Positions 19,809-31,332 are shown, counted from the first letter of the stretch. The stretch is DNA of 32,000 nt from Staphylothermus hellenicus DSM 12710 (GCF_000092465.1 NC_014205.1:240001-272000), one strand, 5' to 3'. The notes: generated from the letters alone by a model not told the origin. Numbers and translations: made by a program.

Positions 19809-19864
19809 ACTTTTAATTCCCAAATAATTCATATTATTGGGATAAGTTGGACGAGGTGTCCAAT

Positions 19865-21052
19865 ATGAGAAAGCTAATCATATACTTATTAATACTAGCA
19901 ATACTGCTCTATCCAGCTTATACTGGAGCAATAAAAACCAGTATCTCCAGTGTTATAGTAACAGATGCTCTAGGTAGAACAATAGTTTTAAACAAAACAC
20001 CTGAGAAAGTAGTATCATTGGCTCCAAGCATAACTGAAACATTATTCTATCTAGGATTACAAAGATTTATTGTTGGAGTTGATAACATATCATATACCGA
20101 TCCATATTTTGGCATTGAAGAATATGTTAAAAACCATAATATCTCACCAGTCGGAGGATACTGGTGGAGCACAATATCCGTTGAGAAAATACTAGCATTA
20201 AACCCAGATATAGTGTTTGCTGACAAAGGAGCACACCAACCCTTACTAAACGTGCTAGAACAATATAATATCACAGTAGTATATCTCAACGGAGGCTCAG
20301 CTAAATCCATACAAGATATATATTCTGATTTAGACATTATCGCACAAGTATTCAATGTATCAAGTAATAAAATATCAGAGTTCATAAATGATCTCGAAAC
20401 AGAAATCAATAAGTATCATAACTTAATCGCTGAGAAAGGAACAATTAAGGCATTGGCTGTAGTAGGAATTTATAATGGAATATGGGTTGCAGGTAAATCA
20501 ACATATATAGATGACCTATTAAGTAGGCTAGGACTAATCAATGCTGCAGAAACAATTGGTTGGAAAGCTGTCAATATCGAAACCATTGCGGAATGGAATC
20601 CAGACATAATACTGGTTACAAGTACTGGGATCGATAATCAAACTCTTAGAAACGCTGGATTATACGATCTAGGCGTTCCAGTAGTATTGCTTAATCAAAC
20701 AATAACCGATGCACTGAGCAGACCGAGTCCCTTAATAATTAATGTGCCAAGAATGATCTATAGTATTATAGATGAATATTTTGGAAGCAAAACAGTGACA
20801 ACTACAACCACTACTACAACTACTACAACAATCACCACCACGACAACAATGACGACTACTACAACAACCACTACTATGGCCACAACCAGTATAGAATCAA
20901 CAACTACAAATTCACCAAGCAATTCCATACATACCGCTACTGAGAAAGAGGTAGAGAAAGGAACAGATTATATAATGATAACTATACTCGTTGTCTCAGC
21001 GTTTATTATAGGCTTACTACTAGGTTATGCATTGTTCAGAAAAACAAGGTGA
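19865..21052 (+). CDS. ABC transporter substrate-binding protein (Fe3+-siderophore/cobalamin type) with Thr-rich stalk and C-terminal membrane anchor
   Basis: Signal/TM N-terminus. VVSLAPSITETLFYLG and DIVF motifs of Peripla_BP_2. A poly-Thr linker is followed by a hydrophobic C-terminal helix plus RKTR. Confidence 0.8.
   Translation: MRKLIIYLLILAILLYPAYTGAIKTSISSVIVTDALGRTIVLNKTPEKVVSLAPSITETLFYLGLQRFIVGVDNISYTDPYFGIEEYVKNHNISPVGGYWWSTISVEKILALNPDIVFADKGAHQPLLNVLEQYNITVVYLNGGSAKSIQDIYSDLDIIAQVFNVSSNKISEFINDLETEINKYHNLIAEKGTIKALAVVGIYNGIWVAGKSTYIDDLLSRLGLINAAETIGWKAVNIETIAEWNPDIILVTSTGIDNQTLRNAGLYDLGVPVVLLNQTITDALSRPSPLIINVPRMIYSIIDEYFGSKTVTTTTTTTTTTTITTTTTMTTTTTTTTMATTSIESTTTNSPSNSIHTATEKEVEKGTDYIMITILVVSAFIIGLLLGYALFRKTR
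20798..20889 (+). repeat. poly-threonine coding low-complexity tract (ACN codon run)
   Basis: TTTTTTTTTTTITTTTTMTTTTTTTTMATT is encoded by mixed ACA/ACT/ACC/ACG codons. Confidence 0.9.
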
Positions 21053-23986: not shown

Positions 23987-24937
23987 TCATGTTTTTCTAC
24001 GGGGAACAATGAATTTCTTCCCATTATACTCTGCTATCATTGTTTTCCCAGTCTTCAATAGTTTATCTAGTATTTCCTCGAAGTTGGCGCCTCTCTTATC
24101 AGCTATGTATTTTAAATAGTCAAGTCTTATTGGGTGAACATTTATTGTTCTTAAAACCTCTTCTACAAGGTTTTCTGAGAATTTGAATAGGGGTTGCTCA
24201 GGATAATTTAGCACTTCTACTCTGTTCTCTCCAAGTTTTTCAGCGAAAATATTGTATGCGATCAAGAAATCATCCTTGTCGGGTATAGTAACGAATTTTT
24301 CTGCTGGAGGCCTTATGGGTGCTTGAATATATGCTTTATCAAATCTTATATTTGAGAGATAATCCGCTATTCCCTCGTATTCTTCGATACTGGTATTCAT
24401 GTTTTTGACAAGCATTGTTTCAGTTATTAATTTTCCACGGTATTTCTTCGAGAAATTAATTATTCCCTCGAGAATTTTTTCAAGCGATAGCTCGGGATGG
24501 GGTCTGTTAAGTTTTCTCCAAGTCTCCTCGTTTACAGTATCTACTTTTACAGAGACTATATCAAATAATAATAGGTCTTCGACAACGTCTTCCCTATATA
24601 TTAGAGAAGCATTTGTAAATATTGCTAATGGAACACTTATCCTCTCCTTGATCAACCTAGCTTCTAATCCAAGGTTTTTATCAAGTGTGGGTTCACCATT
24701 TGGAACAAAAGATACCACATCAGGCTTCTTCTCCTCAACCTCTCTAATAACAGCTTCAACAAGCTTGTAGGGGTCATAAAAACTTATCCTATCAATAATA
24801 AGCCTAGTTGTCCTTCCAGCCTGGCAATATACACAGCTATAACTACAATACTTGTTATAAACATTATTTACACCCAAACTCAAACCAAGCCTCCTAGAAG
24901 GAACAGGTCCAAAAACAATACTATCCATAGCCACCAC
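23987..24937 (-). CDS. radical SAM protein (FGPVPSRRLG-type, function unknown)
   Basis: CSYSCVYCQAG CxxxCxxC motif about 30 aa from the N-terminus. 316 aa. Confidence 0.75.
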   Translation of the reverse strand: MVAMDSIVFGPVPSRRLGLSLGVNNVYNKYCSYSCVYCQAGRTTRLIIDRISFYDPYKLVEAVIREVEEKKPDVVSFVPNGEPTLDKNLGLEARLIKERISVPLAIFTNASLIYREDVVEDLLLFDIVSVKVDTVNEETWRKLNRPHPELSLEKILEGIINFSKKYRGKLITETMLVKNMNTSIEEYEGIADYLSNIRFDKAYIQAPIRPPAEKFVTIPDKDDFLIAYNIFAEKLGENRVEVLNYPEQPLFKFSENLVEEVLRTINVHPIRLDYLKYIADKRGANFEEILDKLLKTGKTMIAEYNGKKFIVPRRKT

Positions 24938-25391
24938 TACATCACCAATACCAATCCATAGATTTACTTAACATAACAAACATAAACCAAAATAATCATT
25001 TCCAAAACCAGATCAACACTAGATAAGATAAGAAATAGAGATTTGAAAACTTATAATTTAGAAATCACCACCTTAGAACCCTGGTTTTGTCAATGAATGT
25101 ATAGGCCACTCTAGTTGTTCATGATAAATCTCTCCAATCCCCTTCAATGAATAAGAACAATAGATAGCTCATCATACCAAAAACAACCCTTTTAATACCA
25201 GAAAGAAATATTAACCCGATAAAAACGTTCAATCCGATGATAACTATTTATAAAAGGATCTTATCATAACATTCTAGGAAAGATTATTATTTCGCCGTTA
25301 TACCTAATTATTTATGCTGAGAATTTAAAGCCCCTTTATAAACCATAATTAATATGCATAGTTAATATAATTGTTTAAACAGAAGATAAAA

Positions 25392-25476
25392 GGGTTCCTG
25401 GTGGTTTATGTGGAGCTCCAATAGGTCCCTCATCGAGGGAATGAAAACCCGATCCAAGAGGGGGAGCTCATACAAA
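25392..25476 (+). ncRNA. GC-rich structured block A (possible H/ACA-like guide RNA; unassigned)
   Basis: GGAGCTCC (25412-19) can pair with GGAGCTC (25463-69), and ACA follows at 25472-74. Inner hairpin TCCCTC-ATC-GAGGGA (25426-40). The ATGA-containing loop is K-loop-like. Confidence 0.3.
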
Positions 25477-25507
25477 ACTAATACACTAGCAACCATAAAA
25501 TATTATT

Positions 25508-25566
25508 GGATGATGAGCGACTTCGGTGTTGAGCTTATGCGATGAAGAACCGTGTGAGGGCTGATA
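25508..25566 (+). ncRNA. C/D-box sRNA (2'-O-methylation guide)
   Basis: C box ATGATGA 25510-16; 12-nt guide; D' TTGA 25529-32; 9-nt spacer; C' ATGAAGA 25542-48; 12-nt guide; D box CTGA 25561-64. A T-rich tract (TATTTTGTTT) follows. Confidence 0.65.
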
Positions 25567-25584: not shown

Positions 25585-25760
25585 CGCCCCCTCTGCTCAG
25601 GCGGGCTTACTGCCTATGGGGGTGGCTATAGTCTTCGGATGTGGGGCCTTCTGGGGTTGTCCTGAAAGGGAGCAAGCTCCTCTAAGGGGTGATGGGCTCA
25701 AAGCCTATGCAGACTAAACCCCACAGTTGACGTATATACATGTGGGGAAAGCGCTTCATT
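25585..25760 (+). ncRNA. GC-rich structured block C, unassigned RNA of about 175 nt
   Basis: Multiple strong helices: CGCCCCC/GGGGGTG (25585-91/25617-23), a CTTCGG loop (25633-38), TCCT-GAAA-GGGA (25660-71), and GGGGTT/AACCCC (25653-58/25717-22) followed by ACA. There is no ORF. Confidence 0.4.
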
Positions 25761-26079
25761 GAGAGCATTCAGCTATATCGTGGAGAAACCAAAACCAAAA
25801 GAATACACAGTAAACTATGCTGATAGAACACAGCTCTTAAAACGCTAAAAACGATCAAATTTATGAAAACACATAATATTTTCCTAACCAGTTTCTTCAT
25901 TGTATAGTTCCAATACTTAACTAATGAATGAATTACTTAATCAAGAATTTTCAGAAACAAAATATTTCTGCTTAGTAAAAAATACTGTGCTGATACACAA
26001 TATTATGTTTAGCCTATATTTATGAAAGAGAACTTTATAATATGAGAAACACATAGACTGTATATATGGTGTATATACC

Positions 26080-26331
26080 ATGAGCGATTTAATAACCGTT
26101 AGAGTTCCCCGCGAAATTAAGGAGAAGATGAGGAAATACCGCAATATTAACTGGAGCGAAGTTGTGAGAAAAGCCATTCTAGAGAGATTAGCAATTGAAG
26201 AGGCTAGGGAAAAGAAATTGATGGCTTCTAAAGTTATGGATAGTATTAGGGAAAAAATTCTTAGAACACATGGTCCAACAAATTATGATTCATCAGAGGC
26301 GATTAGGTATTGGAGAGAGTTAAGAAAATAG
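26080..26331 (+). CDS. vapB: VapB-type antitoxin (ribbon-helix-helix/CopG-like)
   Basis: N-terminal MSDLITVRVPREIKEKM (RHH beta-strand). 83 aa. A PIN-domain reading frame follows immediately and overlaps it. Confidence 0.8.
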   Translation: MSDLITVRVPREIKEKMRKYRNINWSEVVRKAILERLAIEEAREKKLMASKVMDSIREKILRTHGPTNYDSSEAIRYWRELRK

Positions 26332-26497
26332 TTGTTGATGCCAGTGTTGCTGTAAAATGGTTTGTGCCTGAAAAGAACTATGAAAAAGCGTTGTGATCCG
26401 TGATAAATATATTAATGGAGAGTTAGAAATCTACGCACCAAACCTATTAATCTATGAAGTTGCAAATGCTTTAAAACTTCGTAGAACCTATAAACTT
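26310..26497 (+). pseudogene. vapC: vapC (PIN-domain toxin) 5' stump: frameshifted and truncated
   Basis: MERVKKIVVDASVAVKWFVPEKNYEKAL* (first PIN Asp) continues in another frame from 26393 as IRDKYINGELEIYAPNLLIYEVANALKLRRTYKL (PIN Glu). The PIN-like sequence ends at 26497, where IS-derived sequence starts. Confidence 0.75.
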
Positions 26498-26729
26498 ACC
26501 GTTTGTCCCTACCGTATCATTCTATATTTATGTATCTTCGGTGAGGACTTCCACCTCTCCCATAGTCTTTTCTCGAAGGCTATGGGGTCATGGGCGGCTG
26601 TCGAGGCCAACGGCACGGGCCTCCCATCTACGGTGATCCCTAGGGGTTTTGGAGCATTGCTCCCATCAACCCCTAGAGCATAAACCAACACAAGAAAACA
26701 TAATCCAAAAAACTTAAAGCTTACTGCCC
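26498..26729 (-). mobile_element. tnpB-less mini-derivative (MITE/PATE-like) of the neighbouring IS: an LE stub fused to the terminal 179 bp
   Basis: 26498-26676 is the reverse complement of 30158-30336 (10 mismatches, no indels by eye). 26685-26729 aligns with 28808-28870 upstream of tnpB. The junction lies at a CTAGGG microhomology. Confidence 0.7.
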
Positions 26730-27916
26730 TGCCTCTTATATCCTAGATAGTATCCAGTTAGGAATGCTACGGATACTAATGTTATAAATATTGTTAAGAC
26801 GAGTACTAGTGGTGTATGAGGTTCCTTGGAGGAGGTACTGTTAGTGCTGACTGCTTCAGTTGATGATAGAATACTTTCCCAATCGATCCTAATACCTTTA
26901 TCCTCGTTTCCACTACTAAATCTTCCACTATCAAGTAGTCCTGCACTTGGTCCTGGTATTGGGCCGTCCTTTCCAAGCTCGACCCAAAACAGAGTATAGT
27001 CTTTCCTTAGAAGTATTATTGGAGAGAGCGTGCCGTTGCCCCTATGAAGATACATGTCTTCAATAATCAAATCATCATAGCTCTTAACATTCATACCAGC
27101 TTGTTTTGCAAGCGAAACTATTTTGTTGAGATAAGCCTCATCCACTCTAAAGACATCCACTCTACTGGTGAGCCAAGGTATGAATCCTTCAACGTAGACT
27201 GCACGCAAACCACTATTATACTCTGGAACACAACACCTCACTCTAATTGGTGGCTCAACTCTATAGCCATCAATGTAGATATAGTAGACTTCGTAGGGGT
27301 TATAGAGTATTTTCTGGACACTTTGGTTCGCAGGTACAGTACATGTTGTTGTTCCTCCTGAAACATTACATATATACCCTATTCTCTCATAAGCTGTTCT
27401 CTCACCATACTGACCAGCATATTTAATAGAATATCTCGTGGAGACTGTCATGGTCTTCTTGATGATATTAATATAATTATATGTCATATAATATGACATA
27501 TATGACCCTGTCCGGCCATCACCGATCCTTATGAGGAAGCTACCCATATCACCAAGTGCTACAACAACATCTTTACCACTATAGACACCATGGAATACAT
27601 AGATCTTTTCCGGACCAAGTTCTCTAGTACCGACTAGTTCAAGATGTCCGGCGATCGAGGAAGGATCGTCTGATACAAGATATAAGATCTGGTTAAGTCG
27701 ATCTACAACCTCACCCTCCCTATGAATATAGAATACTTTAAACTCCTTCCCCTTAAGATCACTGAGATTGACGGCTGAATACTCCTCAACGGCCTCGAGG
27801 GGCACTCCATAGCTACTAGAATTCTGCTGACCAATAGTGATAGGATACTGCATAATCAATGAAGCAATAATCACAACTATAACTATGAAGGCTGGAATAA
27901 TCTTCTGCATTATCAA
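26714..27916 (-). CDS. secreted/membrane-anchored protein of unknown function (400 aa)
   Basis: N-terminal hydrophobic signal/anchor (IIPAFIVIVVIIASLIM). C-terminal S/T-rich segment plus TM helix (LVLVLTIFITLVSVAFLTGYYLGY) and KRQGSKL. The last ~5 codons and the stop lie inside the mini-element's LE stub. Confidence 0.7.
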   Translation of the reverse strand: MIMQKIIPAFIVIVVIIASLIMQYPITIGQQNSSSYGVPLEAVEEYSAVNLSDLKGKEFKVFYIHREGEVVDRLNQILYLVSDDPSSIAGHLELVGTRELGPEKIYVFHGVYSGKDVVVALGDMGSFLIRIGDGRTGSYMSYYMTYNYINIIKKTMTVSTRYSIKYAGQYGERTAYERIGYICNVSGGTTTCTVPANQSVQKILYNPYEVYYIYIDGYRVEPPIRVRCCVPEYNSGLRAVYVEGFIPWLTSRVDVFRVDEAYLNKIVSLAKQAGMNVKSYDDLIIEDMYLHRGNGTLSPIILLRKDYTLFWVELGKDGPIPGPSAGLLDSGRFSSGNEDKGIRIDWESILSSTEAVSTNSTSSKEPHTPLVLVLTIFITLVSVAFLTGYYLGYKRQGSKL

Positions 27917-28863
27917 TTACCTTTTCCTTCAAGCTCTACTACATACTATTTATAATTATTTATCTTATATAGCTAATCATTATACAGAATTGTTCGAATA
28001 CTTGGACAATAGTAATCATAATTTTGTGTTACAGCAGAGCATGTAGATGGAGGTGTTTGGTTTGTTTTAGCAATTACATGATCTGTTGGTCTCTATCTTT
28101 AAACAGTACATAGTTAATTCATTATTTCTTAATATCTGGTATGGTATTGTAATTAATGGAGCCCATTTTCTTGGCATGGCTGCCTAGTGCTCATGCCTAC
28201 ATAGTCTCTACCAAGCTTGTAGGTTTATTTCCAGCATGATCTATTCCCCGATCCATATATATTCGATTATGGAAAGTAGTGATGGGAAGCTTTGAGGACA
28301 ATCCATGGATCATTAGCTAGGTATTAGCTCAGGGTATGTATCGTGAGTAGCGATAACAGGCATGGCCTCTAATAACGGTTCCATAATAAATTCATTTCAA
28401 AATATTTAGCCATACTTAAGAATTATTAATATAAAAATAATATTGTGTAATGTAAATAATAATATAATAGTTTTATAGCTCGGCGGTCTCTCTAGTATGG
28501 AAGTGTGTAAGGAGAAGTCTCTTCTACAAGATCCATTCTCAGGATTAGTGGTTGGAGAATAAGTTTTGAATAGCAAATTGTATTTCAAGGAGATCAGGGT
28601 ACAGGTAACTACTACCCGGTGTTAATAATGACTATATACATTGTTTCCGAAGTAGCGGAGAGGAGTTCTATGACATGGATAAGAACATGTTCTACAAAAT
28701 AGTCGATGAAGCTGTAGAATCTAGTGTTTCGAAGATAAGTTGCTTGAGGGGAGTGAAACCCATAGTACACCCAGATATTATTGATTCCCCATTCTACGCC
28801 AATTGAAGGGGCATAAAACTTTAAGTATTTCAGATCGTATCTTTCTGTATCGGATGATGTTTT

Positions 28864-29046
28864 GTGTTGGATAGGTTGTTGCCTCCTAGGGAGGCTTGTC
28901 GTAGGCTTGGTATTAGTTTTATCACTTTGAAGAGATGAATTTATTCTGGTAAGATACGTGCTGTCAAGACACCTACTGGTAGGTGGATGATCCCTGAGAG
29001 TGAAGTGGAGAGAATCATTAGTGGGGGCGAGGGGACAGACGGTTAG
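28864..29046 (+). pseudogene. MerR/excisionase-type HTH ORF (IS607 TnpA N-terminal-domain-like) with an in-frame TGA
   Basis: VLDRLLPPREACRRLGISFITLKR*IYSGKIRAVKTPTGRWMIPESEVERIISGGEGTDG*. The TGA at 28936-38 sits where the conserved Trp of the TL(R/K)RW motif is expected. No serine-recombinase catalytic domain follows. Confidence 0.6.
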
Positions 29047-30325
29047 AGTTGCTAGGACGGTTGTGGTTGAATCTGCTCGGATTCCTAGGAAGTTGTTCAA
29101 GGTTTTTGTTGAAGTTGAGGGTATGTATCGTAACATGGTTGAGCAACTAACAATATATGCTGTTAGAAACACTATCACCAGTTTTACAAGGCTTAAAGCA
29201 CTAAAATACCGTGAACTCAGAAGGCTCTACCCCAAACTACCATCACATTATGCATATACTGCGTGCCAAGACTCATCAACAAGAGCTAAGAGCTTCATAC
29301 GCTTGAAGAAGCTTGGACAGATAGATAGTGATTATCCTAGAGTTGAGAAGGTATCAATATGGCTTGACGACCACTTGTGGAGACTGGAGGGATACACATC
29401 TATTAAGATAGCAACTCATAAAGGCTGGATAAGGATCGAATTTGAGCCACACAAGCAGTACTGGAAGTACATCAATGGTGGATGGAAGCCCGCATCAGAG
29501 GCAAAAATAAAACTTGATAAACGAAACAAGAAGATCAAAATATATCTAGTACTAATCAAAGATATTGAACCCTACAAGCCTAGGGGATACATCCCGGTAG
29601 ACGTTAACGAGGACAATATAGCAATACTAGTTGATGATAAACCAGTCCTGCTTGAAACAAATATGAAGAAGATCACTCTGGGATACTATTATCGGAGGAA
29701 GAGGGTTCAGGAAAAATACGATAAAATCTACGGTGTAAAATCTAGAGTTAAGAAGAAAATATTAAGGAAACTTAGAGAGAAGAAAAAGAAGCATAGTATT
29801 AGGTGGAAGACAGCAAACATTATTGTAAGGGAAGCTGTTAGGAGAGGTTATGGGATAGCTCTTGAACAACTAGGTAGAAGATCAGCAAACAATATGATTA
29901 AGAAGGTAAGGGATAGACAGCTGCGGCACAGAATATATCAGGCATCATTCAAGAGCATACAGAACGCTATAGCTGAGAAGGCACGAGAGTATGGGGTTCC
30001 AGTGATATATGTCGATCCAAGGAATACTTCAAGACAATGCCCAATACACAGGGCACCAATATTATACGATAACGGGTCTAGGATTGGAAAATGCAGTATC
30101 GGTGGAGAATTCTGGCACAGAGACGTAGTCGCATGCTATAATATTCTCTCCCGCACCCTAGGGGTTGATGGGAGCTATGCTCCAAAACCCCTAGGGATCA
30201 CCGTAGATGGGAGGCCCGTGCCGTTGGCCTCGACAGCCGCCCATGACCCTATAGTCCTTGATAGAGGACTATGGGAGAGGTGGAAGTCCCCACCGAAGAT
30301 ACATAAATATAGAATGACACGGTAG
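29000..30325 (+). CDS. tnpB: TnpB (IS605 OrfB-type RNA-guided nuclease family)
   Basis: RuvC-like motifs YIPVDVNEDNIAI (D), GIALEQLG (E), and WHRDVVACYNI (D), plus a TSRQC...C zinc-finger region. 441 aa by the tracked start; a GTG at 29021 is an alternative start. Confidence 0.9.
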   Translation: MKWRESLVGARGQTVRVARTVVVESARIPRKLFKVFVEVEGMYRNMVEQLTIYAVRNTITSFTRLKALKYRELRRLYPKLPSHYAYTACQDSSTRAKSFIRLKKLGQIDSDYPRVEKVSIWLDDHLWRLEGYTSIKIATHKGWIRIEFEPHKQYWKYINGGWKPASEAKIKLDKRNKKIKIYLVLIKDIEPYKPRGYIPVDVNEDNIAILVDDKPVLLETNMKKITLGYYYRRKRVQEKYDKIYGVKSRVKKKILRKLREKKKKHSIRWKTANIIVREAVRRGYGIALEQLGRRSANNMIKKVRDRQLRHRIYQASFKSIQNAIAEKAREYGVPVIYVDPRNTSRQCPIHRAPILYDNGSRIGKCSIGGEFWHRDVVACYNILSRTLGVDGSYAPKPLGITVDGRPVPLASTAAHDPIVLDRGLWERWKSPPKIHKYRMTR

Positions 30326-30336
30326 GGACAAACGGT
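30158..30336 (+). ncRNA. presumed omegaRNA/right-end RNA scaffold region of the tnpB element
   Basis: This is exactly the block retained in the tnpB-less mini-copy. It overlaps the tnpB 3' end and runs to the element terminus. It contains several hairpins: GGAGC-TAT-GCTCC, the 30248-30275 stem, and GGTGG...CCACC. Confidence 0.5.
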
Positions 30337-30338
30337 TA

Positions 30339-30446
30339 GCTAAATCTATGGATTCATTGTTTGTAACGTGTGATAAGAAACTATATGATAGTCTTGTAGG
30401 AGAAAATGATATTAGAATAACGTTGCTGGATGATCTGATAATATAA
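30339..30446 (+). pseudogene. vapC: vapC (PIN-domain toxin) 3' stump
   Basis: AKSMDSLFVTCDKKLYDSLVGENDIRITLLDDLII* matches the PIN C-terminal pattern (..lvT.D.kl, last acidic residue). It starts 2-3 nt after the IS right end. Confidence 0.65.
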
Positions 30447-30468: not shown

Positions 30469-31332
30469 TTATTGTTTCTTCACTATTGATTCAACTGTTC
30501 TTTTCACCATTTTCAGCCATTCATCAGATCCGTTTCTACATGTTATGGTTAGGTTGTTTTTGTTGCTGAGTTCCTGGATAATATCTTTTCTACAGTTTAG
30601 GAGTATTGAGTAATCTGTTGTTTTAAGCATTGGTATGTCATTGTATCCGTCTCCAACACCTATTGTTACTATGTTTTTATTGAATATTTCTTTTATGATC
30701 TCAATTGTTCGCTGAGTTGCTAAGCCTTTATCATGGTTTCCTGTTATAAGGTATATGGTTCCAGAACCTGTTGAAACATTTAGGCCTCTAGCCTTGATCT
30801 CTTCCACTATTTTATTGATTATTTCCCCCCTGACTAGTGGGTGGAATAAGTATGAGTATTCACGTTTGAGAGCCAATATTGATTGTTCAATGGGTAGACG
30901 GGTTAATTCAGAGAATTTCTGAGGCGTAAAATCTTTGAGCCACAATATTTTTTCCCTTGTCTCCTCAATTATATCAATTATTTTCTGCTCAATAATACTT
31001 GTTTTCAACCCATTTACTATAACAATGTATTCATCAATTATGGAGTGCTCATATTTCTTCAGCATATCATGAACTAGCGAATTCTTATCAACAAGTTTTT
31101 TGGGGATAAAAGTTGCTGCCCCATTCTCCACTGTAAATATTGTTTTGCCGTGTAGACCCCATTTTTCAATATAGTATTCAATCTCATATCTTGTCTTCGA
31201 AGAATTTAGGATGAGTAAAATATTGTTTTCCAAAACATACTTTATGGCATCAATACTTTTCCTATAATCATATGTTTTATTAAGTAAGCAACCATCCATA
31301 TCCGATATAACTACTATTTTCTCTCCGCCCAT
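30469..31332 (-). CDS. mpgP: mannosyl-3-phosphoglycerate phosphatase (HAD-IIB)
   Basis: VISDMDGCLL (motif I), LNSSKTRYEIEYY (motif II; closely resembles Pyrococcus MpgP FNSSKTRAEQEYY), ENGAATFIPK, GDGYNDIPML (motif IV). It lies next to mpgS. Confidence 0.85.
   Translation of the reverse strand: MGGEKIVVISDMDGCLLNKTYDYRKSIDAIKYVLENNILLILNSSKTRYEIEYYIEKWGLHGKTIFTVENGAATFIPKKLVDKNSLVHDMLKKYEHSIIDEYIVIVNGLKTSIIEQKIIDIIEETREKILWLKDFTPQKFSELTRLPIEQSILALKREYSYLFHPLVRGEIINKIVEEIKARGLNVSTGSGTIYLITGNHDKGLATQRTIEIIKEIFNKNIVTIGVGDGYNDIPMLKTTDYSILLNCRKDIIQELSNKNNLTITCRNGSDEWLKMVKRTVESIVKKQ

Follow-up and report, generated by a model that had tools for sequence, protein, structure and literature searches.

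A defective IS607-family element and a miniature derivative lie head to head around captured DNA in a vapBC locus of Staphylothermus hellenicus

The window analysed here is a stretch of 32,000 nucleotides of Staphylothermus hellenicus DSM 12710 (NC_014205.1:240001-272000), and all positions are counted from its first letter. In it a vapBC locus, with a dead toxin gene and an intact antitoxin gene, carries two copies of one insertion sequence (IS), here called A and B, which stand in opposite orientations within the toxin gene vapC and enclose further DNA. Element A is a defective member of the IS607 family and B is a derived miniature inverted-repeat transposable element (MITE); their left ends (LE) face each other, their right ends (RE) point outward, and the whole is a head-to-head scar with captured DNA. 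The main value of this work is the corrected annotation of A as a tnpA-deleted IS607-family element with GG-bounded ends and a presumed guide-RNA scaffold. The locus contains the following features (HTH, helix-turn-helix; ORF, open reading frame).

26080-26331, + strand: vapB antitoxin gene, 83 aa, intact; the protein is exactly ADI31433.1, a VapB-type antitoxin in UniRef, with Pfam RHH_12 (precomputed)
26310-26500, + strand: N-terminal stump of vapC (PIN toxin), with a TTG start and a 1-nt deletion near 26390-26396
26499-26729, - strand: MITE-like IS607 derivative B, 231 bp, inverted and non-coding
26714-27910, - strand: 398-aa protein gene, full length against its homologues; the product has a signal anchor at the N terminus and a transmembrane helix at the C terminus
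27911-28808, no strand assigned: 0.9-kb segment with the upstream region of the 398-aa gene and a 43-aa orphan ORF at 28675-28806 (WP_281058483.1), for which a library search gave the ORF itself alone
28809-30335, + strand: IS607-family element A, tnpA-deleted, 1,527 bp, from Pfam matches and collinearity with positions 1-207 and 687-1995 of a related locus (L032)
28866-29046, + strand: HTH_17 remnant of tnpA in element A, 59 codons (HTH_17, 1.7e-10), with an in-frame TGA at 28936-28938
about 29016-29038: joint of the tnpA deletion in element A
29021-30325, + strand: tnpB of element A (ADI31435.1; 434/441-aa ORF; PF07282, 2.1e-12), intact
30156-30335, + strand: structured RNA module (presumed omega RNA scaffold), from covariation and folding
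30336-30446, + strand: C-terminal stump of vapC (LAKSMDSLFVTCDKKL...LLDDLII, then stop), from shuffle tests and BLASTP positions, with the fourth acidic motif (TCD)

The two ends of vapC

The TTG start of vapC at 26310 lies within the end of vapB, whose stop codon is at 26329-26331, and the two genes overlap in the manner of a vapBC pair. A profile made from 83 homologues of the PIN family (137-161 aa) matched the N-terminal stump over 26313-26393 and 26375-26491, in two different frames, and intact VapC proteins are 59-69% identical to this stump. A preliminary description of this DNA had proposed that an uninterrupted vapBC orthologue be aligned to the locus; the nearest intact pair was found in the Thermoprotei metagenome-assembled genome (MAG) AUK080 (L004:9493-10157), with a VapB 63% and a VapC 69% identical to those of S. 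hellenicus. The DNA alignment of the stump to this vapC extends to 26499 and gives the 1-nt deletion near 26390-26396, in agreement with the frameshift reported earlier near 26391-26396. Decay of the stump is slight, with this single frameshift and zero stop codons. Its last codon is a Thr codon, ACC, of which the CC (26499-26500) is the IS607 crossover core.

The C-terminal stump scored 10.4 bits against the family profile, a value reached by 0 of 500 shuffles, and BLASTP mapped it to family residues ~104-150, always within the last ~35 residues. The split of vapC described earlier is confirmed. In the family alignments the N-terminal stump reaches 'YKLT' and the C-terminal stump begins about residue 111; together with the AUK080 gene they give ~46 missing central residues instead of the 30-35 first estimated, and the third acidic motif, rightly listed as lost, falls among them. 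Three of the four acidic residues of a complete PIN fold are left, namely the Asp of VVDAS, the Glu of YEVAN and the final Asp in TCD, so the complete fold is absent. When joined, the stumps scored 23.5 bits against Pfam PIN, for which the cut-off is 23.6, and 90-98 bits against the family profile. Among family pairs that are 50-70% identical over the N region, the C region is 26-32% identical, and for the stumps of the window the value is 25-29%; because the identity of the C-terminal stump matches what is expected from the N-terminal one, the two sequences are consistent with one gene. The homology to vapC extends up to the GG core on both sides. A metagenome scan using the neighbouring MPG phosphatase gene at 30469-31332 gave no match.

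This locus resembles other IS-disrupted VapBC loci in its overlapping vapB and vapC, its inactivated toxin and its intact antitoxin, but differs from them in that ~46 codons including the third acidic residue have been replaced, not merely interrupted. The intact vapBC pair of AUK080 sits 2.2-2.4 kb downstream of a complete IS607 element of the same lineage (L004:5314-7312; tnpA and tnpB), a proximity that may reflect coincidence or a common mobile neighbourhood.

An IS607-family element and a MITE facing each other

Element A starts at its LE with GG-GCATAAAAC... and closes at its RE with ...GGGACAAAC-GG. Relatives were obtained from a scan of one genome per species; Desulfurococcales and allied MAGs contributed 80 related loci, whose TnpB is 41-72% identical to that of element A (61-68% in the relatives compared for the family assignment). 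In two DNA-collinear relatives, L032 and L004, the same LE and HTH segment run into a TnpA of 212 aa and 191 aa, respectively, and that of L032 has an HTH_17 (1.3e-9) and a Resolvase domain (1.5e-26). An HTH-first serine recombinase is the hallmark of the IS607 family, and as in that family tnpA is followed downstream by a tnpB of the same orientation. Compared with L032, element A has lost ~479 bp of the tnpA catalytic domain (L032 positions 208-686), and within the HTH remnant the TGA at 28936-28938 replaces a TGG; with this catalytic deletion and nonsense codon it lacks the complete TnpA of an autonomous element.

The termini tell the same family. In alignments of the relatives' ends (~20-48), the LE begins with (G)GG-GCAGAAAC and the RE closes with GGGACAAAC-GG, followed by any base, so that the terminal GG of IS607 is found both at the LE, (G)GG-GCAG, and at the RE, AAAC-GG. 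Of 18 distinct LE flanks, 13 have a G just before the core (p = 3e-5), and a subterminal motif is repeated directly at both ends (GGGCAGAAAC at the LE, GGGACAAAC at the RE). From these alignments the GG cores of the window lie at 26499-26500, 26728-26729, 28809-28810 and 30334-30335; no target-site duplication was found at either copy in the window. In experiments, IS607 likewise has a GG target with a (G)GG preference and GG at both termini, without target duplication (Chen et al. 2018, PMC6188088). Since the collinear relatives encode a TnpA with HTH and Resolvase domains and the termini are GG, the element belongs to the IS607 family (serine-recombinase TnpA and TnpB), and its 'IS605 OrfB' annotation in S. 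hellenicus has to be corrected.

The preliminary description had taken the element for a strand-specific one of the IS200/IS605 type, whose transposition is single-strand; the Resolvase-type TnpA of the relatives and the GG ends contradict this assignment; neither a Y1 transposase nor a fixed 4-5-nt target was found among the relatives, whose shared LE flank is just (G)GG. The oddity of an asymmetric element with the same end on both outer sides persists for another reason: the LE and RE of element A differ from each other and the GG crossover core is directional. Like IS607, IS1535 and ISC1926, the lineage has an HTH-first tnpA followed by tnpB, GG termini and a (G)GG target, with a direct subterminal motif at both ends and without target duplication or terminal inverted repeats, and its relatives are widespread in Desulfurococcales MAGs. 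The copy in the window differs from these in the ~479-bp catalytic loss and the nonsense codon, so that it is not self-mobile, and in being paired head to head with a MITE around foreign DNA.

The MITE consists of ~53 bp of LE (including a TATA-like box), an 8-bp joint and 179 bp of RE, which hold the complete structured-RNA module; it is thus short and non-coding and keeps both ends of the parental IS. As with other MITEs from IS607/IS605-type elements, it has at 231 bp both ends and no ORF and would be mobilisable only in trans, but it differs from them in that the LE promoter region lies within ~10 nt of a complete guide-RNA scaffold: the internal deletion stops within 2 nt of the first RNA stem, to which it fuses the opening ~53 nt of the LE. 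The REs of A and B are 94% identical, with a 73-nt identical stretch, and the LEs are ~78% identical over their first 27 nt, after which comes a 21-nt indel. The inverted repeat between 26495-26676 and 30158-30339 (182 nt, 94% complementary) is the only long one in the window. An inverted RE copy of 179 bp had been placed at 26498; the repeat is real, but its extent is 182 nt and the MITE starts at 26499. The element termini, placed at the GG cores by the family alignments, lie 1-3 nt from the coordinates first given. The outward-facing REs, seen from the start at both stumps, each present GGGACAAAC-GG to vapC, and the LE-type sequences at 26729 and 28809 face inward, as stated, across ~2.08 kb.

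Inverted fragments of the RE and RNA module also occur near IS607 copies in other archaeal MAGs (L017:5450-5680 and L041:4796-4926, also L057:5346-5448 and L061:7716-7803), where they sit either upstream of the LE, head to head, or directly after the RE; in L017 the neighbouring IS607 copy also lacks the tnpA catalytic domain. The clustering of inverted RE fragments may recur in this IS607 family.

The S. hellenicus DSM 12710 genome was finished at the Joint Genome Institute, with gaps closed by polymerase chain reaction (PCR) and Sanger sequencing (PMC3236042), and the 398-aa protein of 26714-27910 matches a S. hellenicus database entry exactly. Independent Logan short-read contigs (SRR3925462, SRR3925463) are 100% identical to the window over three stretches: 25615-26609, which crosses the junction at the left stump and includes 110 nt of the inverted RE; 26628-28867, which spans the internal joint of the MITE, both LE junctions and the entire interior; and a third from 30308 on, which covers the right junction and enters 29 nt of the RE. 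Contigs from up to 4 runs contain the junction at the left stump, the two LE junctions and the MITE joint. The sole ambiguity in the k = 31 graph is the 73-nt stretch identical between A and B, and the alternative path through it swaps the MITE side and retains the structure with REs outward. An assembly artefact at the junctions, which had been named as a way in which the first reading could fail, is very unlikely because the Logan contigs reproduce the junctions at 100% identity, and the PCR and Sanger finishing also argues against it. Both termini of copy A interrupt the contigs (L001, L002, L084), the RE at 30308, 29 nt from its end, and the LE at 28867, after 59 nt; other copies of these ends, perhaps MITE-like, are therefore probably present elsewhere in S. 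hellenicus. The 90%-identity cluster of the TnpB has this locus as its only member, and exact-protein look-ups of TnpB with three alternative start codons found no gene on record.

A putative omega RNA and the DNA between the left ends

TnpB works with an omega RNA that overlaps the 3' end of tnpB and takes the flank beside the transposon end as its guide; it also requires a short motif (TAM) beside its target. The structured module of element A has the placement of such an RNA: it covers the RE together with the 3' end of tnpB and reaches as far as the transposon boundary. In an RNAalifold consensus of the last 200 nt of 49 copies, compensatory double changes were found in 29 of the 38 consensus pairs, and the folding z-scores are -6.9 for copy A and -4.9 for MITE copy B, which fold alike; an Rfam search gave no family matching the module. 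The 182-nt repeat is presumed to be the TnpB omega RNA scaffold, for which the flank from 30336 would serve as guide. A TATA-like box is conserved in the LE of the relatives, ~30 nt upstream of the start codon of tnpA, and we infer that the MITE would comprise a promoter, a guide-RNA scaffold and a guide derived from its flank.

OMEGA systems, the TnpB and omega RNA of IS200/IS605 and IS607 elements, share with this locus the Cas12f1-like TNB domain, the RuvC and zinc-finger motifs, and a covarying RNA of ~180-200 nt that runs over the tnpB 3' end and ends at the transposon boundary. The window differs from them in its two presumed guide modules, which point outward and one of which is on a MITE and fused to a tnpA promoter region. 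The would-be guide TTAGCTAAATCTATGGATTC (first 20 nt of the RE flank of copy A, 30334-30355, + strand) recurs at 24952-24971 on the - strand with 17/20 matches, or 18/20 with the preceding G, and 0 of 100 shuffles gave a second match; this second site lies just upstream of the start of a radical-SAM gene (23987-24937), and the likeness goes no further.

The interior between the two left ends measures 2,079 bp (26730-28808). It had been described as carrying a gene for a 400-aa membrane-anchored protein and decayed sequence; this gene is indeed present, but it is full length (398 aa) and not decayed, and its last 5 codons and stop are provided by the LE of the MITE. Its homologues (381-412 aa, 35-47% identity) occur in ordinary chromosomal contexts among housekeeping genes, away from IS elements. 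Apart from its own S. hellenicus entry, the protein has no match above 47% identity, a close orthologue or paralogue being absent from the genomes searched. Because the protein has no close relative and its homologues stand among housekeeping genes, the interior appears to be foreign DNA, as far as databases show. No PIN, TnpA or TnpB remnant was detected in the interior by profiles, by tblastn using the TnpA and TnpB proteins or by blastn using a complete relative, and neither a tRNA nor an Rfam match was found there. The 43-aa ORF lies within an open frame that adjoins the LE of copy A.

A Pfam search with the 398-aa protein was negative. The AlphaFold2 model is beta-rich (mean predicted local distance difference test score, pLDDT, 77) and gave no significant fold match in the PDB. 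The family is small and found in Desulfurococcales-like genomes and metagenomes; many of its residues are invariant, among them two Cys, with three more Cys nearly so, and its two membrane helices enclose an ectodomain rich in beta structure.

How the block may have arisen

A serine recombinase acting on inverted sites with a directional core gives inversion, not excision. Since inverted right ends with directional GG cores should allow nothing but inversion of the enclosed DNA, the unit is best taken as a scar and not as a transposon, and no sign of mobility of the block was found. The preliminary description had held that a single canonical insertion does not leave such a structure, which the present analysis supports. 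The identity, boundaries and integrity of all parts are directly observed; the order of events, the exchange step and any RNA-guided activity are what we infer below.

Each stump junction looks like a canonical IS607 insertion junction. Because the differences between the LEs and REs of A and B coexist with a barely decayed N-terminal stump, the divergence of the copies predates the insertion, which points to two independent insertion events. All single inversions were worked through (homologous recombination of A with B, and crossover at the cores LE with RE, LE with LE and RE with RE), and in every case the stumps stay separated by the interior, which calls for at least one more exchange; no one-step history restores an intact vapC. 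Of the three explanations offered at first, two head-to-head insertions followed by replacement of the interior fit best. A rearrangement driven by the inverted repeats, then given as 179 bp, merely flips the interior and does not create the stump junctions.

We therefore tentatively favour two independent head-to-head insertions of the IS607 lineage in vapC with a later exchange of the interior, at a probability of roughly 0.45. Two members of the lineage, one a 231-bp MITE and the other a 1.5-kb element without tnpA and with tnpB, would have entered vapC at GG dinucleotides ~140 bp apart in opposite orientations, so that each stump would carry a canonical RE-GG/target junction and the left ends would face each other. 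The ~140 bp of vapC between the left ends would then have been swapped for 2.08 kb of foreign DNA with an intact membrane-protein gene, most likely through recombination with other copies of the element ends in the genome, either by homologous recombination or by a TnpA joining one element end to a GG target. The surviving tnpB with two outward guide modules would target TnpB to intact vapC and might so favour retention of the block. Several points weigh against this history. In a genome of 1.58 Mb, two insertions into the same 440-bp gene are improbable without targeting or relaxed selection; the exchange requires either extra element copies flanking the former site of the interior or end-by-target recombination, which to our knowledge is undemonstrated for IS607 TnpA, and the copy in the window has no catalytic TnpA. 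Moreover, the closest VapC among 5.8 billion proteins is 69% identical, so that vapC has no nearer comparator.

It is less likely, and on balance doubtful, that the block of MITE, interior and IS was built elsewhere, in this genome or in a donor, and entered vapC whole with a deletion of ~140 bp, either by homologous recombination with element copies that already sat in vapC or by a TnpA acting on each outward RE and a GG target. Such an origin would agree with an interior foreign to the genus as far as databases show, with element ends lying exactly at both interior borders, the MITE LE even supplying the last codons of the gene, and with the inverted RE fragments beside LEs that recur in L017 and L041. 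The architecture also resembles that of classical composites with inverted flanking IS copies, as in Tn5 and Tn10, where two inverted copies have the same end outward and a passenger between them; A and B are indeed inverted copies of one IS around 26730-28808. The transposases of Tn5 and Tn10 are, however, DDE enzymes whose two ends are functionally equivalent inverted repeats, whereas IS607 ends are non-equivalent and their GG core is directional, so that the block should not excise. The composite cargo unit suggested earlier is therefore right as to the passenger between two IS copies but mechanistically disfavoured for a serine recombinase, whose directional GG core inverts rather than excises (PMC6188088 for the GG core). 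In vitro, the TnpA of IS1535 paired left ends readily and right ends poorly, which also speaks against entry of the block by its REs. The homologous route requires two head-to-head pairs of copies, one per site, and no second copy of the block is on record.

Rather unlikely is a history in which the ORF at 28675-28806 is the decayed middle of vapC, copy A a simple insertion, and 26499-28674 (the MITE and ~1.95 kb) a separate one. What suggests it is a 65-codon open frame that adjoins the LE on the vapC strand inside a stop-rich 0.9 kb; the ORF, at 43 codons, comes close in length to the ~46 that vapC lacks. Cutting out the element at 28804/30337 puts this frame in phase with the C-terminal stump, and it ends '...IIDSPFYAN', of which 'IIDSPFYA' loosely resembles the third acidic PIN motif, and the Pfam PIN score rises from 23.5 to 24.9 bits with coverage from end to end. 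With the GG boundaries, in contrast, the ORF ends in TGA and is +1 out of frame with the C-terminal stump, and the Asp-to-Asp spacing would be 21-22 residues, not 18. The joined profile score of 102.2 bits compares with 99.4 +/- 2.7 for shuffled sequences and is reached by 31 of 200 shuffles; a middle-only profile was blank in six frames and in sliding windows; pairwise comparison with the 83 family middles gave p = 0.4-0.6 with 300 shuffles; and HMMER against 1.84 billion representatives returned the ORF itself alone. A word-index homologue search with the joined middle and C-terminal sequence also gave no candidates. The ORF thus found no support as vapC middle in five tests, and we keep it as a minor rival.

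Hyperthermophilic archaea usually have several copies of PIN toxin genes, and the C-terminal stump is short (36 aa) with weak similarity to the family (E = 0.45, six-frame search). The two stumps might on these grounds come from two vapC paralogues joined by an IS-mediated rearrangement, which the preliminary description had itself named as what would overturn its reading. We consider this improbable: the stumps share one strand and follow each other in the correct order, the C-terminal stump maps to the C-termini of the family members that best match the N-terminal one, its identity of 0.25-0.29 fits the 0.26-0.32 of family pairs with equal N identity, as expected of one gene, and no additional PIN remnant is present in the interior.

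Just as improbable in our view is that the 3.8-kb block acts as a double-ended RNA-guided homing cassette in which one tnpB would serve two outward omega RNA genes. The TATA box of the MITE fused to the scaffold would then be a minimal stand-alone guide-RNA gene, and if an intact vapC of a sister chromosome or of imported DNA were cut at either site, this locus would serve as the template for repair, with copying of the elements and the passenger gene. If true, TnpB elements could spread cargo without a transposase.

Least credible of all is an in-place inverted duplication, through template switching at the repeat or a replicative inversion. Intramolecular replicative inversion gives just the topology seen here, N|RE'..LE'|segment|LE..RE|C, and a 73-nt stretch is identical in both copies, but the copies differ by 6% in the RE and by ~22% plus a 21-nt indel in the LE beside a nearly undecayed vapC stump, serine transposases are non-replicative, and an artefact over the 182-bp repeat is countered by the Logan contigs.

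The locus offers a natural example of a MITE that keeps just a promoter-bearing LE and a whole presumed guide-RNA module. If the outward guide modules are expressed, it would be a natural test of TnpB homing that carries passenger DNA, and also of an IS607 TnpA recombining a single end with a target; otherwise it amounts to a commonplace scar that an IS-mediated rearrangement left in a toxin gene the cell can spare.

Some minor observations were made elsewhere in the window. At 25506-25566 (+ strand) lies a candidate C/D-box small RNA with clear C and D boxes, which matches Rfam sR5 at 32.9 bits (E = 1e-5), below the gathering score of 40. The stretches flanking it at 25395-25465 and 25585-25725 are G+C-rich (44-48% in a genome of 36% GC) and may be further non-coding RNAs. 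Finally, an array of 9-nt ACN-rich units (20791-20880), which encodes a Thr-rich linker, lies inside a 401-aa ORF (19847-21052) that probably codes for a surface protein.

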